From positions 1 to 54,777 of the IMG/VR virus record IMGVR_UViG_3300031688_000022: a stretch of 54,777 bases of DNA; one strand, written 5' to 3'. A program made the position numbers and the translations under genes. Below the pieces are notes generated by a model. The model was not told where the DNA came from. It did not search any database and saw only the letters and a program-made list of their open reading frames with translations. The DNA comes from a virus (taxonomy: Duplodnaviria > Caudoviricetes). Below, piece after piece: positions 22,838-35,754 of this stretch (position 1 is its first letter; each line of letters starts with the position of its first letter).

Positions 22838-23443
22838 TTAATCTTCGGAGTTAGTGTTCTCTTTAATTTTTAATAATTCATAAGGAATATAAATGTCTTG
22901 GTCTTCGGGAATATAAAGATAATTAATATCTGTACGATTACAAGTGTCGATTGCATCGTAGATAGTTTCCACTAATGCTTCACCACCTAGATTAAAAGAA
23001 GTGTTGAACACTACTGGTACACCATTCTTTTCGTACATGGTTTTAATTAAATTATAATAGTTTTTATTTTGTTCTACTGTGACCGTTTGGATTCTACAGG
23101 TTCCGTCTGCATGAACAATACTAGGAATCTTCTCGTAGGCAATCTCTCGTGCTTGAATAGCAAACGACATCCAAGGGGAGTCGGGTAATTGTTTCATGTC
23201 AAAATAATCATTAGCATGTTCTGCCATGACACTACCTGCGAAGGGACGATAGAATTCTCTCTTCTTAATATTATTAACAATTTGTTTTGCTTCGGGGTTA
23301 GTCGGGTCGAATAAAATACTTCGGTTGCCCAATGCTCTTGGCCCCCACTCACCTTTACCTTGGAACATTCCAACGATTTGTTTCTCGTCAATAATTAAAT
23401 CAACAATCTCATTCACGTCTCTTATTATTTCTGTCTTATGCAT
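22838..23443 (-). CDS. Carbamoyltransferase (NodU/CmcH) C-terminal domain
   Basis: EWGPRALGNRSIL, KKREFYRPFA, HADGTCRIQTV, NTSFNLGGE; start via TAATG at 23443. Confidence 0.92.
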   Translation of the reverse strand: MHKTEIIRDVNEIVDLIIDEKQIVGMFQGKGEWGPRALGNRSILFDPTNPEAKQIVNNIKKREFYRPFAGSVMAEHANDYFDMKQLPDSPWMSFAIQAREIAYEKIPSIVHADGTCRIQTVTVEQNKNYYNLIKTMYEKNGVPVVFNTSFNLGGEALVETIYDAIDTCNRTDINYLYIPEDQDIYIPYELLKIKENTNSED

Positions 23444-24639
23444 TATGCTGTCTCCTTGTCTGACCATATCGACTTCTTCACGTACACTTCTTTTTCAGAA
23501 TCGGGAAGGTTCTCCCAAAACTGAACAGCAGCTCCTAGTGCAGTACCACCATCATGGGGGACTGGGTCAATAAAGAAATTAACATCGGGGAATGCAGATA
23601 GGTACTTGTAGTTGTTTGTACAGTTAAGACTATACCCACCACTCAATATAATATTCTTACACTCGGGGTCTAGGTCTAATGCTTTCTGAATTGTTTTACA
23701 AGATGCCTTAAAGGAATCTATCTCTACTTGTTGTGCAGTTGTAAACTGAGTATGAACATTGTCCATAGGATTACTGTAGGATGCCATTCCCATGACCTTC
23801 CCAGCTGCACGTCCTAGATCGTCTGTACCTAATGCCTGACTCATGTTACTGAAGTTCATACCACTAGATGGGAACGAGGTAAACTCGATCTCAGCACCTG
23901 TCTCTGTGTCTGTCATGAACTCTGATTCCAATGCAGTACAAGACTCCCATAACTCGTTAGGGAAATACTTTGCAGAGAGATCATCTACTGCTCGTGCAGC
24001 TGACAACTTCTGATAGTGTAGAGTGACTTCTTTACCATCTAATTTATAAATGGATTCTATTTCTTGATGCAGGGGGTGAGTGTCAAAATATTTCTTTGCA
24101 CCTCCACCGTCCCATACTATAATGTGTGCAGTTTCATACGGACTAAAATACACGGCTGACCATGCATGATATAAATGATGATCGACTCGGTAATGACTTT
24201 CGGGTTCAACACCACTAGTAGTGTCATCGGCTGAGAACTGTTCCTTACAAATTATATCAACAATCTCTTCGTCATTATTATCCCACTGATCTTTAAAAGT
24301 AAATTCAGGATAAAGAATATGAAGGTCTTCCATGCGTTCACGACTTAATTGTTTTAATCGGACATCCTCTAAAAACTTACGAGACCACAACCTATCAAAT
24401 CCCATCTGACCACTCACCTTAAGATCGGTGTGTCGTCTGTCAAAGGATGCAAAGACCACATGGTCTACATCTTTAAGTTCGGGGTTGGATTCAAGAACCT
24501 GCATACAGGCACTCTCGGGTTTGGGACTCCAGTACTTCTCTCGTCTACATCTTTCTTCTTCGTAGAGGTTGAGTACCTCTCCATCTTGTAATTCACACAC
24601 AGTTGAGTCGTGTGATATATTCACTCCAAGTATTCTCAT
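23443..24639 (-). CDS. Carbamoyltransferase (NodU/CmcH) N-terminal domain
   Basis: ILGVNISHDS, EEER, HHLYHA, DGGG, GKVMGMASY, SGGYSLNC, DGGTALGA. Confidence 0.92.
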   Translation of the reverse strand: MRILGVNISHDSTVCELQDGEVLNLYEEERCRREKYWSPKPESACMQVLESNPELKDVDHVVFASFDRRHTDLKVSGQMGFDRLWSRKFLEDVRLKQLSRERMEDLHILYPEFTFKDQWDNNDEEIVDIICKEQFSADDTTSGVEPESHYRVDHHLYHAWSAVYFSPYETAHIIVWDGGGAKKYFDTHPLHQEIESIYKLDGKEVTLHYQKLSAARAVDDLSAKYFPNELWESCTALESEFMTDTETGAEIEFTSFPSSGMNFSNMSQALGTDDLGRAAGKVMGMASYSNPMDNVHTQFTTAQQVEIDSFKASCKTIQKALDLDPECKNIILSGGYSLNCTNNYKYLSAFPDVNFFIDPVPHDGGTALGAAVQFWENLPDSEKEVYVKKSIWSDKETA

Positions 24640-30520: not shown

Positions 30521-30631
30521 TTATAAGAAAGTGTTGCACACCTTATTAAATCTCCCACTTTTCATCAATCGATGAAACTTGCCTGCTTGTGTCCTAAGAT
30601 ACGAGGCAGACAATGATGCGTAATATTGCAT
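30521..30631 (-). CDS. 36-aa small protein (not in track)
   Basis: AGGAG SD; MQYYASLSASYLRTQAGKFHRLMKSGRFNKVCNTFL. Confidence 0.6.
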   Translation of the reverse strand: MQYYASLSASYLRTQAGKFHRLMKSGRFNKVCNTFL

Positions 30632-30740
30632 TTTTATCTCCTGTTATGGTTGTGTAACTTTCCGATCTTAGGACTTCGTTAACGTTTGTCACATTAACTA
30701 CTTACTCTTGTCACATATTTGTTACAATTCTATTTAGACA

Positions 30741-30965
30741 TTAAACCGTCTTATCGATTATATTGCCCACTGAATCTATCTCTTTGTGAAACTGCGGTAC
30801 TGGTGTGAAGGTCATCCGACCATTCACCATGGTGACTTTACAATAGTCAACCCATGCACCCCATCCTAGTCTCTCAAATGTTATCTCCTCATCGAGGGAT
30901 AAGTCTTTGTCTTTATTTTGGTAAAGTGTATAGTCTATCCACTTGCGTTCGTTTAATTCACTCAT
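30741..30965 (-). CDS. Hypothetical protein
   Basis: AGGAG SD after the tRNA; start MSELNERKW. Confidence 0.65.
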   Translation of the reverse strand: MSELNERKWIDYTLYQNKDKDLSLDEEITFERLGWGAWVDYCKVTMVNGRMTFTPVPQFHKEIDSVGNIIDKTV

Positions 30966-30988
30966 CGTTGAGCTCCTTGTTACCAATG

Positions 30989-31078
30989 TGGCGGAAGATG
31001 AAGGATTCGAACCTTCGAAAGGTTTGACCCTTTGCTGGTTTTCAAGACCAGTGCATTCAACCGCTCTGCCAATCTTCC
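30989..31078 (-). tRNA. tRNA-Ser (TGA)
   Basis: GGAAGAT/ATCTTCC acceptor stem, TGA anticodon, long variable arm, GGTTCGAATCC, encoded CCA. Confidence 0.97.
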
Positions 31079-31090
31079 CTAAATTAATAC

Positions 31091-31352
31091 TGGTGTCTTG
31101 GGACGGTCTTAAGCAAAGCAAGGTCATGAAGTAATTTCGACATACTTCCCTTGCATCCTGAAATGTGGGGTCTGTAGGGGTTTTATTGTCTACTGGGTAG
31201 ACTAAAACACCTTCTATCCACATATCGTCCTCGCGCACTTCAAACTATCGGTTCCAGTCACCGACCTACTTGGTATCGTATCCCTATTTGAGGTAACTAA
31301 CCCCATTCTCATCATAGAAGGAATAAGTAACTACTAGTGCTGGTTAAGACAC
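31091..31352 (-). ncRNA. Candidate large structured ncRNA of unknown class
   Basis: Terminal stem GTGTCTT/AAGACAC, 3' end reading ACCA, several nested internal hairpins, no credible CDS. Confidence 0.65.
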
Positions 31353-31360
31353 TCGTACTA

Positions 31361-31615
31361 TTAAAGATCAGTTTCTTGAATCTTTGTTTTGTTTTTAACC
31401 TTGGCCTTACGGTAGTTCTTTGTCTTTACTGGTAATGGTACGTCCATTGTGTATTTGACATCGACCTTCTTAGGGGCTCTTTTTTTGTAAACTTTCTTTT
31501 TAGACTCGTCTACATTGGGTGTTGATTTGTCGTCTGCAATGAATCGACCTTTCTCGTCTCTTGCTCTGACCCATTCAAACCCAAAGAAGTCTGTGATGTT
31601 ATTCCACCATCCCAT
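31361..31615 (-). CDS. Small basic hypothetical protein
   Basis: AGGAG SD; RARDEKGRFIADDKSTPNVDE motif. Confidence 0.7.
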   Translation of the reverse strand: MGWWNNITDFFGFEWVRARDEKGRFIADDKSTPNVDESKKKVYKKRAPKKVDVKYTMDVPLPVKTKNYRKAKVKNKTKIQETDL

Positions 31616-31624
31616 GTTATTCTC

Positions 31625-32236
31625 CTAGAATGAATACTCGATTCCAAACGTTAGTGAATCAACTGCAGTATTCTTCAACACGTTCTGACCTACCAACATA
31701 TAGAATGTCGTATCGTTAATTGTCTTAGCACCTCTCAACATAACATATGAGTCCTTACCCTGTTTATCGAATGTTCCATAGATGAACTTTGCGTCCACTA
31801 ATGGGACAAACCATAATTTGTAGGTGAGCTCACCATATGTTTCATGAGTGTCTAAGTCTCCGAATCCAGTAATGGACAATCCACCCACTGAAACTGATGC
31901 GTATACTTCTTCAACTGAATCGTATACACTATCCCACACATATCGAATGTATCCGACATCTAATGAGACATTGTCTGTTATTGATAAGTCATATCCACCG
32001 AAATAGTTCAACTCTCTTGTTGTAGTATCTCCAGTGTAATTGACCTCGGAACCCCATACTCCTACGTATAGACCTTCCGTCTCTGCTTGTAAACCGAATG
32101 ATTTAACAGGTTTGCCTGATTGAGATTTACCTCTAAACACGTAGTCACTTGAGTAACCTACGAACCCACTGACATCGGCAAATGTCGGTGTTGAAAATAG
32201 CATTAATGATAATGCTGTTAATAATAATTTATTCAT
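31625..32236 (-). CDS. Outer membrane beta-barrel (TIGR02001/TorF-like porin)
   Basis: Signal peptide, SDYVFRGKSQ, GLYVGVWGS, LDVGYIRY, C-terminal YSF. Confidence 0.85.
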   Translation of the reverse strand: MNKLLLTALSLMLFSTPTFADVSGFVGYSSDYVFRGKSQSGKPVKSFGLQAETEGLYVGVWGSEVNYTGDTTTRELNYFGGYDLSITDNVSLDVGYIRYVWDSVYDSVEEVYASVSVGGLSITGFGDLDTHETYGELTYKLWFVPLVDAKFIYGTFDKQGKDSYVMLRGAKTINDTTFYMLVGQNVLKNTAVDSLTFGIEYSF

Positions 32237-32258: not shown

Positions 32259-33017
32259 TTATTGTTGTTTAAATCGCACGTTTCCAGCGACACTAATTCG
32301 TTCACCCCCACAATAAAATGGGTAAACTGAATGTCTCAACCAACTAGGAAAAACCAATAGGTCTCCCTCTAGTGGAAAATGAGTGAATGTTGACATGTTC
32401 AAGAATTGTGTCTCTCCGTAATGCAGTTCAATATGTCCTGCAAGTGGGGGGACAACTCCTCCGTTAACAATACCTCCAAGTGGGGCTGTGTTATCCTTGT
32501 CAAATATGTTGTCTATTGCATCTTCGAGTTTTACAGTGTTCTTAGTGTAAAAGACGAATGAGAATAGACCATCATGTGAATGGATTGGATTGAACTCAGC
32601 ATTGTTTGCGATGTTCACCCATAGTCCATTGATTTCTAGTTGTTCTTTAGGTATTCCTATTTGACATTGATCAACCATGGTCATAACATGGTTCATGATA
32701 TGATCTTTTGTCTCATCGGACACTAAGTCCTCTATGAAGATTTGTTCCTCTACTCTTCCTGCAAGTAGTCCACCAACATCGTGGTTTGAAGACCCTCTCC
32801 GTTGCTGTATACAGTCGGTTACATGATCTAATATTTCGGGGTTGACTCCACCATGATATACAGGTGGCCCGAATGGACTGAACATCTGTCCTTGAATTTC
32901 ATTTCTAGGAGGCTCAGGTGCATCAAGGTATATCTCATTATTGGGTGGTGGGTTGTCAAAATCAACTTTGATTCCTACAACGTTATTACCCTTATCAAAT
33001 TGGTCTTCAGTATTCAT
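32259..33017 (-). CDS. 2OG-Fe(II) oxygenase (TIGR02466-like)
   Basis: WVN, NPIHSH, SFVFY, GDLLVFPSWLRHSV, RISVAGN. Confidence 0.88.
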   Translation of the reverse strand: MNTEDQFDKGNNVVGIKVDFDNPPPNNEIYLDAPEPPRNEIQGQMFSPFGPPVYHGGVNPEILDHVTDCIQQRRGSSNHDVGGLLAGRVEEQIFIEDLVSDETKDHIMNHVMTMVDQCQIGIPKEQLEINGLWVNIANNAEFNPIHSHDGLFSFVFYTKNTVKLEDAIDNIFDKDNTAPLGGIVNGGVVPPLAGHIELHYGETQFLNMSTFTHFPLEGDLLVFPSWLRHSVYPFYCGGERISVAGNVRFKQQ

Positions 33018-34087: not shown

Positions 34088-34781
34088 GATTGTTTCCTGT
34101 TGTTGGGTGGAAGAATTGTACTTGACTAACTCTCCAGTTATCTCCACTATATTTAGTGTAGTCTTCGATATGAGCTCCATGCAACCTATTGCCGGGAAAT
34201 ATAACACATCGGTTAAATTTAGAAGGGATGATGGTATGCAACTCAAAGTCGTCTTGGCATGGATATAGTAATCCGTGGTGTTCATCGTTAGATATCCACT
34301 CACCATTATATACTGCAGTTCCACCACTCTCTTGTTTATCTAAGTAGACAAGCATGTTAAGTGTTGCTAGTTTGTTGGGGGTATCGAATGATGAATCCGT
34401 ATGTGGGTAGTGTTGCATCTTGTTATCAAACTCAGTGATCGTTTGGAACACATTGAATTCGTGAATTATGTCCCAGTCGTATCTACCCTTATGGAAATGC
34501 TTTCTGCATATATCTAACAGTCGTTCCATCTCACCAAAATACTTCCTAGTGGGGTGTCCGACCTTATCAGTAATTCTGCAATCGTTGTATTCAATTCCGT
34601 TGGGGGATTTTCTCTCCGTGGAGTATTTCCACATAGGGAATTGACGAGCCATGACGAAATCATGTATTGCTTCGGGATTCTCATAGAAGTTGTCTATGGT
34701 AATTGTCAACCCATCAAATGTAGGTTCCCACTTCTCAGACATCTTGAATAGTTCATCATGGATATAGGTTTTACCTGTCAT
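34077..34781 (-). CDS. 2OG-Fe(II) oxygenase-like protein
   Basis: IDNFYENP, PHTD, VYL..GGTAVY, FNRCVIFPGNRLHG, RVSQVQF. Confidence 0.85.
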   Translation of the reverse strand: MTGKTYIHDELFKMSEKWEPTFDGLTITIDNFYENPEAIHDFVMARQFPMWKYSTERKSPNGIEYNDCRITDKVGHPTRKYFGEMERLLDICRKHFHKGRYDWDIIHEFNVFQTITEFDNKMQHYPHTDSSFDTPNKLATLNMLVYLDKQESGGTAVYNGEWISNDEHHGLLYPCQDDFELHTIIPSKFNRCVIFPGNRLHGAHIEDYTKYSGDNWRVSQVQFFHPTTGNNHAK

Positions 34782-35754
34782 GGTTTATGTCCTCTTCAAG
34801 AAAATTATAGGACATGTTTCGTCCTGTTTTGTTGTTGTCTAATTCTGTTTTATGCCATAGGTTGAATGATATACTGATACGTTCATATCCTGTCTCTCTA
34901 CCACCAGTTATGGCAGGTACGGCATGTTGTAGGTAAGATGGCCATAACAAGAACTCCCCTGTCTCGGGATATACACTCATTTCTGACTCAATTCCGTTAG
35001 TACCCATGAATTCGATTCTGTCCATACCTTCCCTAGTAACAGGACGATCAACTTGTTGTTGACCCGACAATGCCATTGCTGAAGGTGATGTGAACTTGAT
35101 TGGTTGTGACCCTTCACCTGCCTTGACATAATATGTTCCACTCATTTTACAATTAGTGTGATTATGTGTCTCGTGGGCATGGTTACCAGTGTAAACATTA
35201 ACCCATGCAAATAGGTGTAGGTCATTCCTTGATAGGTGACTTACTGGTATATTCAACATGTTCTGTATGTACGAGATATAGGTGTCTTTGCATATGTCTG
35301 AGAAGTCCTTGAACCAATCTAGTCCATGGGTCTCTTCACGAATGTCTTCATCGAAATAGGTAGTGTAATTTCTTGCTCTATCTTCCCCTGCACGTTCTTT
35401 GACCTTACGCACTAGTAGTCTACAATCAACTGCAATCTCGTCATGAGGTAACTCCATATGACCCCTTAAAAAAGGTGTTGCAAATACTGGTATGATCTCT
35501 CCATCTGCTGGTCGGAATGGTAATTTCGGTTCTACATAGGAATCAACTAAAGGTTCTGTCCATCTAGTATGTTGGATAGGTTGTTCGTACTCTTCTATTG
35601 CAAGTGTATGAGAATCAGCATTCCATTCTTGATCAGGCATACTGACTGTATCACTTCTTTTACTTGCTCCAAGTGGGTCTAATAGAACCCTCTCTCTTCT
35701 TGAAAGTTCTACCTTTGGTTCTTCCTTTGTGGGTGGTGCCGACTTAGGTCTCAC
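34771..35754 (-). CDS. 2OG-Fe(II) oxygenase (TIGR02466-like)
   Basis: AWVN, HETHNH, SGTYY, WPSYLQHAV, RISISFN. Confidence 0.88.
   Translation of the reverse strand: MRPKSAPPTKEEPKVELSRRERVLLDPLGASKRSDTVSMPDQEWNADSHTLAIEEYEQPIQHTRWTEPLVDSYVEPKLPFRPADGEIIPVFATPFLRGHMELPHDEIAVDCRLLVRKVKERAGEDRARNYTTYFDEDIREETHGLDWFKDFSDICKDTYISYIQNMLNIPVSHLSRNDLHLFAWVNVYTGNHAHETHNHTNCKMSGTYYVKAGEGSQPIKFTSPSAMALSGQQQVDRPVTREGMDRIEFMGTNGIESEMSVYPETGEFLLWPSYLQHAVPAITGGRETGYERISISFNLWHKTELDNNKTGRNMSYNFLEEDINHDR

Follow-up and report, generated by a model that had tools for sequence, protein, structure and literature searches.

Introduction

For some fifty years the tRNA region of bacteriophage T4 has been known to give rise to two stable RNAs whose role is unknown. 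These are the species 1 and species 2 RNAs, or RNAC and RNAD, with lengths of 139 and 119 nt, respectively. Complex-folded RNAs carried by phages and equally lacking a known role, such as GOLLD and ROOL, often lie next to tRNA genes and are several-fold larger than the RNA described here. In marine metagenomes and T4-like cyanophages, the structured RNAs manA, wcaG and PhotoRC-II (RF01745, RF01761 and RF01717) have been reported (PMC2864571). As for RNAC and RNAD, the statements made on them in PMC3014915 and PMC9697503 call their roles unknown.

The locus analysed here lies in a 54,777-nt stretch of viral DNA (IMG/VR record IMGVR_UViG_3300031688_000022, hereafter the window). A first-pass annotation, made from its letters alone, had proposed that positions 31091 to 31352 encode on the minus strand a multi-domain RNA with paired ends and a 3' CCA, located directly upstream of a tRNA-Ser gene. 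The flagged stretch is a genuine folded non-coding RNA, which belongs to a small family of marine T4-like phages. In this regard, the proposal of a multi-domain non-coding RNA in a phage tRNA cluster is supported by the family, whereas the acceptor-like architecture of paired ends and 3' CCA is not.

Genomic setting

The 54.8-kb window corresponds to a T4-like myovirus, with an estimated completeness of the record of ~30%, and its NrdA shows ~72% identity with those of Synechococcus phages. It encodes two 2OG-Fe(II) oxygenases and a Nol-like carbamoyltransferase, which are usual auxiliary genes in marine T4-like phages. The RNA element is contained in a 282-nt gap of the minus strand between an 84-aa ORF and tRNA-Ser(UGA), with the following genes around it:

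23443-24639, minus strand: Nol-like carbamoyltransferase
30989-31078, minus strand: tRNA-Ser(UGA), called by ARAGORN and Rfam, 11-12 nt 3' of the RNA element
31361-31615, minus strand: 84-aa ORF upstream of the RNA, its stop codon 4 nt before the RNA
32259-33017, minus strand: 2OG-Fe(II) oxygenase
34771-35754, minus strand: 2OG-Fe(II) oxygenase

The 12-nt spacer to tRNA-Ser was as originally described. ARAGORN detected only tRNA-Ser and a tRNA-Thr in the whole window, tRNA-Ala being absent. Between positions 30600 and 31900, three promoter-like sites were counted on both strands together (3.4 expected from shuffles), two of them on the opposite strand, and the single site on the strand of the element (30665-30692) lies ~300 nt downstream of tRNA-Ser. 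The same interval showed no terminator-like site.

The 84-aa ORF has no Pfam or PHROG family. Its homologues (those of loci L004-L017 together with that of the window) keep a conserved N-terminal part, ..FEWVRARDEKGRF.ADDKSTP..DESKKKVYK, followed by a lysine-rich C-terminus of variable length. ORFs of the outer-membrane type Gcw_chp (PF09694) recur near the tRNA region, as in the window (31625-32236, minus strand), L016 (2673-3305) and L017 (2776-3393), and in some relatives such an insertion separates the 84-aa ORF homologue from the tRNAs.

A family of five forms

When the 84-aa ORF was used as bait, the homologue search returned 32 loci. Two of them (L004 and L005, with 3 differences between them in 4 kb) contain the element at 85% identity, whereas 12 (L006-L017) carry a tRNA-Ala(UGC) after the ORF homologue instead of the RNA, directly in 11 of them and behind the Gcw_chp ORF in L016. 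In the window and in L004/L005, the RNA stands in the tRNA-Ala slot of their relatives (window 31079-31360). The other 18 bait loci are weak matches without tRNAs. Among L006-L017, the tRNA-Ala(UGC) is often followed by a tRNA-Ser (e.g., L007:2669-2839). Between these two tRNAs, L012 (2780-3397) and L014 (2786-3403) carry a 205-aa ORF with matches to GIY-YIG (17.1 bits) and NUMOD3 (16.6 bits), both below the Pfam cut-offs, which recalls the SegB homing endonuclease inside the tRNA cluster of T4.

More distant members came from pattern scans. A scan of metagenomes yielded eight true loci plus one chance hit (L039), and scans of viral sequences uncovered shorter relatives. Of 41 stretches picked up by one pattern scan, 26 were new, among which L081 alone was a member and the rest were chance matches in coding DNA. 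Two exact-pattern scans recovered L004/L005 only, a further later scan gave no new member, a flanking 203-aa ORF used as bait led only to the two close contigs, and L087, from a scan of genome contigs, was discarded as a chance hit without model match. Altogether, a covariance model of the conserved 5' domain (R1) matches 24 times in 57 sources, the window included, with E <= 1.8e-15 and nothing else credible. Applied to five whole records, R1 found one copy in each of two and none in another two; its 16.6-bit hit in the fifth falls inside a 127-aa ORF and was rejected.

All copies of the family reside in marine T4-like myovirus contigs, always on the same strand as the neighbouring tRNA genes, and they can be sorted into five forms of ~177-267 nt:

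Form A, 267 nt: the window, L041 and L038; upstream of tRNA-Ser
Form B, 267 nt: L004, L005 and L042-L044, with only the 3' half in L040
Form C, 3' end lying outside the locus: L045 and L046; 5' part like form E, 3' part like form B
Form D, 177 nt: 11 contigs; between tRNA-Ala and tRNA-Asn in a Thr-Ala-[RNA]-Asn-Asp-...-Tyr-Ser cluster
Form E, 198-199 nt: L049, L050 and L057; inside tRNA clusters

The contigs with forms D and E are also T4-like, as indicated by UvsX, a DnaB-like helicase and a carbamoyltransferase. The form D RNA occupies the 188-nt gap between tRNA-Ala and tRNA-Asn, with its conserved block starting 1-2 nt after tRNA-Ala. A second gap of the form D cluster, the 140 nt between tRNA-Asp and tRNA-Tyr (L047:5621-5760), holds an ORF of ~38 codons with a hydrophobic stretch and no second RNA. 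Form C looks recombinant, since its first ~115 nt match form E (L049) and the remainder is identical to form B (L004).

Every form begins with ACGAGU and finishes with CACCAG. Between these ends we find a 131-nt 5' domain composed of helices P1 to P4 and a kissing contact, followed by P5, a variable insert, the tail helix P8 and the invariant CACCAG.

Boundaries and parts of the RNA in the window

Conservation across the family places the best bounds of the element 4 nt upstream of the start first proposed (31356) and at the CACCAG end (31090), so that the original limits of 31091-31352 had to be slightly extended. R1 matches the window at 31227-31356 with 143.9 bits. The parts of the form A RNA, all on the minus strand, are as follows:

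31090-31356: whole RNA, 267 nt, delimited by family conservation, with conserved ACGAGU start and CACCAG end
31226-31356: conserved 5' domain, 131 nt, common to all five forms (alignment, covariance model R1, pair counts)
31333-31356: P1 hairpin, ACGAGU-GU...GC-ACUAGU, 8 pairs, 3 of them changed on both sides, 96.6% of cells paired
31343-31346: kissing strand UAAC within the P1 loop UUAACC, paired with the P3 loop
31279-31325: P2 region, UAUUCCU (31319-31325) with AGGGAUA (31279-31285), 7 pairs, 2 compensatory
31301-31304 and 31290-31293: P3, GGGG with CCUC, 4 pairs, 100% paired
31294-31297: P3 loop GUUA, partner of UAAC in the kissing contact PK1, 4 pairs, 2 compensatory (A-U to G-C and C-G to U-A), 100% paired
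31248-31264: P4 hairpin, UCGGU-GACUGGA-ACCGA, 4 invariant core pairs
31254-31257: invariant CUGG in the P4 loop
31226-31230 and 31101-31105: P5, GGACG with CGUCC, closing the variable 3' domain
31163-31223: hairpin AUGUGG...CCACAU with a CCA loop on its inner stem, forms A, B and C only
31118-31154: hairpin GCAAGG-GAAGUA...UACUUC-CCUUGC, forms A, B and C only
31242-31245 and 31095-31098: putative P8, GUUU with AGAC of the 3' tail, by homology with forms D and E
31090-31099: 3' tail, AAGACACCAG, with the terminal CCAG at 31090-31093

Within P2 lie P3 and an invariant strand, UCUAUGAUGAGAAU. In forms C, D and E, P4 has lost its outer pair and gained an inner one. P5 closes a 3' domain of variable size, which holds two long hairpins in the 267-nt form but a short one in the form of 177 nt. 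P8 would be limited in form A to four pairs, which were read from the sequence and imposed as constraints on folding. A second pseudoknot, PK2, may form between the terminal CCAG and CUGG in the P4 loop.

Fold and covariation

The free energy of the element taken alone is not exceptional: RNAfold on 31091-31352 gives z = -1.66 relative to dinucleotide shuffles, 12 of 200 of which reach a fold just as stable. One sequence by itself is thus no proof of a structure, and it is the comparative evidence that lifts the element above chance. For the 5' domain, 29 pairs were evaluated on 11 distinct sequences, with partners slid by 1-3 columns as a control. Standard pairs are formed in 94.6% of 314 cells (31-47% when slid), seven pairs have changed on both sides (0-1 when slid), and the covariation score reaches 0.262 (0.03-0.09 when slid). 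None of 500 shuffles attained the observed pairing percentage or score, while as a control for changes on both sides shuffling is weak, since 59 of 500 reached seven in the 5' domain and 24 of 500 reached the value of the set of forms D and E. The latter comprises six distinct full-length sequences with 45 pairs in eight helices, of which 96.2% are paired (36-52% when slid) with five changes on both sides (0-1 when slid), and it adds P5, P8 and PK2 to the helices of the 5' domain.

Compensatory changes were observed in five helices. P1, in which ACGAGU plus 3 nt faces 3 nt plus ACUAGU, owes three covarying pairs to them. The kissing contact reads UAAC/GUUA in forms A, B, C and E, and two compensatory pairs turn it into UGAU/AUCA in form D. 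P8 joins in forms D and E the segment after P4 with the 3' tail by 10 pairs, two of them compensatory and 94.9% paired. P5 follows the consensus GAC+N/N+GUC, and among the 10 rows with both strands its innermost pair is G-C in three (form A), C-G in three (form E) and U-G in four (form D); form B lacks the 3' strand of this helix. The four pairs of PK2 (CUGG/CCAG) are selected by alifold and remain invariant in all six D and E sequences, so that covariation neither supports nor contradicts this contact. Only about three diverged lineages (A/B, D and E) carry the covariation, and the number of independent events is accordingly small. Three further candidate pairings were rejected: UCUCC/GGAGA, a lengthening of P2 through UUACU/AGUAG (intact in forms A, B and D but disrupted in C and E), and pairings of J24 with the tail, which are not maintained across forms.

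These data allow a closer look at the first-pass annotation. All the strings named in it, namely GUGUCUU (31346-31352), AAGACAC (31093-31099) and those of the stems and hairpins, occur at the minus-strand positions given, and the helices listed are reproduced by the single-sequence minimum free energy (MFE) fold. Two of them, GGACG/CGUCC and UCGGU/ACCGA, turned out to be the family helices P5 and P4, backed by comparative evidence. The two long hairpins are an insert inside P5 that only forms A, B and C possess. In the one at 31163-31223, the inner stem has been fully exchanged between form A and L004 (GUCUAC-CCA-GUAGAC for GUAUAAC-CCA-GUUAUAC) with conservation of pairing and loop, whereas the one at 31118-31154 is identical across the three forms and so offers no covariation. 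Two elements of the original picture were abandoned. The terminal stem GUGUCUU/AAGACAC is not a feature of the family: 30 of 300 shuffled tails match it, its 5' strand takes part in the covarying P1, and form D has no complementarity between its 5' and 3' ends (-6.0 kcal/mol, a value that 175 of 300 shuffles attain). In its place, GUGUC belongs to P1, and by homology the AGAC of the tail would pair with GUUU and its closing CCAG with the loop of P4. The alternative pairing AGUUACC/GGUGACU was also dropped, because form D alters the first strand and leaves the second unchanged. Nevertheless, the RNA of the window with the family helices enforced reaches -61.5 kcal/mol against -70.6 kcal/mol for the MFE fold, pseudoknots not being counted, and for this reason the terminal stem may exist in form A as a competing conformer.

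Coding potential, conservation and RNA libraries

A reading frame of 33 aa in form A and 35 aa in form D starts at AUGAUGAGAAUG. In forms B, C and E, a 1-nt insertion cuts it to ~10 codons, with the downstream nucleotides still conserved, and the coding interpretation was therefore rejected given the frameshift in three of the five forms.

On the other side, the RNA is as conserved as the neighbouring tRNAs and more so than the flanking genes. Compared with L052, the form D RNA is identical over 177 of 177 positions in five of eight comparisons, with 99.4% identity in one and 98.3% in two, while the 2 kb downstream show 93.3-99.8% identity in seven of the eight and 73.7% over 335 nt in L058, and the DNA upstream of the form D tRNAs is unrelated to L052 in five of the eight. 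Such conservation amid swapped flanks indicates a tRNA-plus-RNA cassette kept intact in a mosaic neighbourhood.

The locus is also represented in marine RNA libraries. From 20 listed runs, 18 are recorded as RNA (11 studies), and the listed runs contain 30-77% of the sampled words of 30900-31700, in the form of contigs, which do not show strand, ends or level and may derive from DNA carry-over. Run X13 gave a 232-nt contig at depth 27 covering exactly 31090-31321, next to flanking ORF contigs with depths of 2.6-3.7, and run X1 a 714-nt contig at depth 38.8 covering 31089-31802. The contigs of these two studies stop at the predicted 3' end (31090 and 31089, respectively), which could equally result from assembly breaks where strains diverge after the conserved block. 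In three of the four runs examined (X1, X2 and X3) the contig of the element does not surpass its neighbours in depth, and other contigs run from the element into tRNA-Ser or cross both of its borders. The presence of the locus in these libraries is a weak hint of transcription.

Relation to catalogued RNA classes

At gathering scores, Rfam 15 recognises in the whole window the two tRNAs and nothing on the element. A permissive scan (E <= 10) of 30900-31500 gave again nothing on the element and a tRNA match only at 30992-31078; its sX4 and plastid hits fall on tRNA-Ser and were discarded. Nor did the loci of forms D and E match any family at permissive thresholds. A distant blastn search of form A against 50,697 GenBank phage records gave no match, and form D is likewise absent from GenBank phages. 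No description of this RNA was found in the article texts searched, and the Additional Files of PMC2864571 could list more marine motifs.

The signatures of known classes reported missing at first reading, those of a T-loop, tmRNA and RNase P, were not found by ARAGORN and Rfam either. Neither program found a cloverleaf, T-arm/T-loop or acceptor stem of a tRNA (RF00005) in the element, and there is neither an ARAGORN call nor an Rfam match for tmRNA. In forms A and D, no Rfam model of RNase P RNA matches at E <= 10, no ribozyme family does so either, and no Y-RNA-type family (YrlA) is found among the matches to the element. A tRNA-Ala split by an intron was rejected as no tRNA half was found.

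The hammerhead core is formed by CUGAUGA, stem II, GAAA and stem III. In the marine phage RNA, the corresponding strand reads UCUA(U/C)GAUGAGAAU, then P3, then AAAU: the forms have U or C before GAUGA, four extra nucleotides (GAAU) precede P3, and AAAU instead of GAAA follows it, so that the assignment to this class, which has no Rfam match, was rejected. C/D-box RNAs combine a C box (RUGAUGA) with a D box (CUGA). Only a C-box-like string is present here, with 13.3 bits for sR24 (gathering score, 36); in forms C and E it reads CGAUGA. No CUGA partner strand was seen on reading the sequences by eye, and a C/D-box or kink-turn was rejected too.

Proposed origin and alternative explanations

A conserved, covarying, non-coding fold exists in the tRNA clusters of these phages. 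Our preferred explanation, to which we assign a probability of about 60%, is that the element is a structured non-coding RNA gene of a small uncatalogued family, located in or at the edge of T4-like tRNA clusters, whose product would be released and act in trans. Co-transcription with the neighbouring genes is proposed because no promoter-like or terminator-like site lies next to the element on its strand. The RNA would then be excised as host enzymes mature the flanking tRNAs, by RNase P cleavage where the downstream tRNA begins, together with endonuclease action or trimming 3' of the upstream tRNA or ORF. Pairing of CCAG with CUGG would produce a compact double-pseudoknot fold, and exonucleases might be halted at this protected body. 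The stable folded RNA could subsequently be active in trans, for example as a protein-binding scaffold or as a decoy.

The same absence of an upstream promoter-like site on its own strand and of a terminator-like site would be expected from a folded spacer or leader of the tRNA transcript, acting in cis to guide or time its processing or to protect or insulate tRNA folding, and degraded afterwards. This possibility, which we consider rather unlikely, agrees with the short distance, 8-12 nt in most cases, between the RNA and the tRNA that follows it (forms A, B and D, and L057 of form E), and with the RNA-library contigs that join the element and tRNA-Ser. However, the next downstream feature in L049 and L050 is a small ORF and not a tRNA, the RNA replaces a tRNA in the lineage of the window rather than accompanying one, and a spacer would need neither such extended invariant single strands nor two contacts of a tertiary kind. 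More speculative, and somewhat less probable in our opinion, is a novel class of RNA acting on tRNA metabolism, either by capturing the CCA ends of tRNAs or their precursors with the UGG of the P4 loop, for which its own CCAG would compete, or as a ribozyme cutting the phage tRNA transcript. Self-cleavage or another catalysis at one of the borders of the RNA itself, for instance immediately behind the CCA with which the upstream tRNA of form D ends, seems quite improbable. A complex fold with a kissing contact, a likely second pseudoknot and many invariant unpaired nucleotides would suit a ribozyme, as would the start of the form D block right behind tRNA-Ala and the string UGAUGAG, which we take to recall the hammerhead core; but no Rfam ribozyme matches at E <= 10, the hammerhead arrangement is not reproduced, and RNA-library contigs span both borders.

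The tRNA-like RNA suggested by the first reading, with ends paired in an acceptor-like stem and a 3' CCA, matured and perhaps used like a tRNA, is very unlikely. It is true that in forms A and B the strands GUGUCUU and AAGACAC complement each other perfectly and are used by the MFE fold, that all forms end in CACCAG and that the lineage of the window has the RNA in a tRNA-Ala slot. Yet the lack of end complementarity in form D, the frequency of equivalent duplexes among shuffled tails and the engagement of the 5' strand in P1 speak against such a stem, and neither a T-arm nor any tRNA or tmRNA call accompanies it. Moreover, alanine tRNAs are marked by a G-U third pair, and the third pair of the putative stem would be G-C. 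Finally, a non-functional element (a decaying gene, or mobile DNA left behind in a tRNA region prone to recombination) or a gene for a small protein is scarcely credible. The region is mosaic, with flanks swapped between contigs, relatives have a weak GIY-YIG/NUMOD3 ORF between their tRNAs, and forms A and D keep a frame of 33-35 codons; against this stand the compensatory changes in five helices, a frame that is broken in forms B, C and E, and a conservation comparable to that of the neighbouring tRNAs and above that of the flanking genes.

Comparison with known systems

The closest analogy to this RNA is offered by RNAC and RNAD of T4, which are the nearest known system in terms of niche: small non-coding RNAs of a T4-type myovirus, encoded within its tRNA cluster, adjacent to tRNA genes and on their strand. 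By location, the analogy drawn in the first-pass annotation was right. The likeness does not extend to the molecules, since R1 finds nothing in the T4 tRNA region (L056, T4 69000-75000) at E <= 10 and no similarity is apparent by eye. RNAC has a T-arm sequence of the tRNA type, which is missing from the marine phage RNA, and the latter is larger than both T4 RNAs and has a kissing-loop fold of its own. With tRNAs and tRNA-like RNAs it shares the placement among tRNAs, the ...ACCAG end and, in the lineage of the window, the tRNA-Ala slot, but it differs from tRNA, tmRNA and YrlA in lacking cloverleaf, T-loop and acceptor stem and any Rfam match at E <= 10. In contrast to GOLLD and ROOL, it matches no Rfam family of any kind. 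The motifs manA, wcaG and PhotoRC-II are in Rfam and probably lie in 5' UTRs of protein genes, whereas the marine phage RNA has no match to any of the three and is located among tRNA genes.

In uncultured marine T4-like phages, the niche of the stable T4 RNAs is filled by a larger RNA that is unrelated to them and clearly structured. This suggests that large phages repeatedly take RNAs other than tRNAs into their tRNA clusters. The covariation of the family, whose search and test in marine homologues had been proposed at the outset and which supports the family fold, is sufficient to design probing, processing and binding experiments, and an uncatalogued RNA family is added for the annotation of marine viromes and metatranscriptomes. 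The window contributes to it the expanded 267-nt form, the placement in a tRNA-Ala slot, and a tail helix and kissing contact tested across forms.
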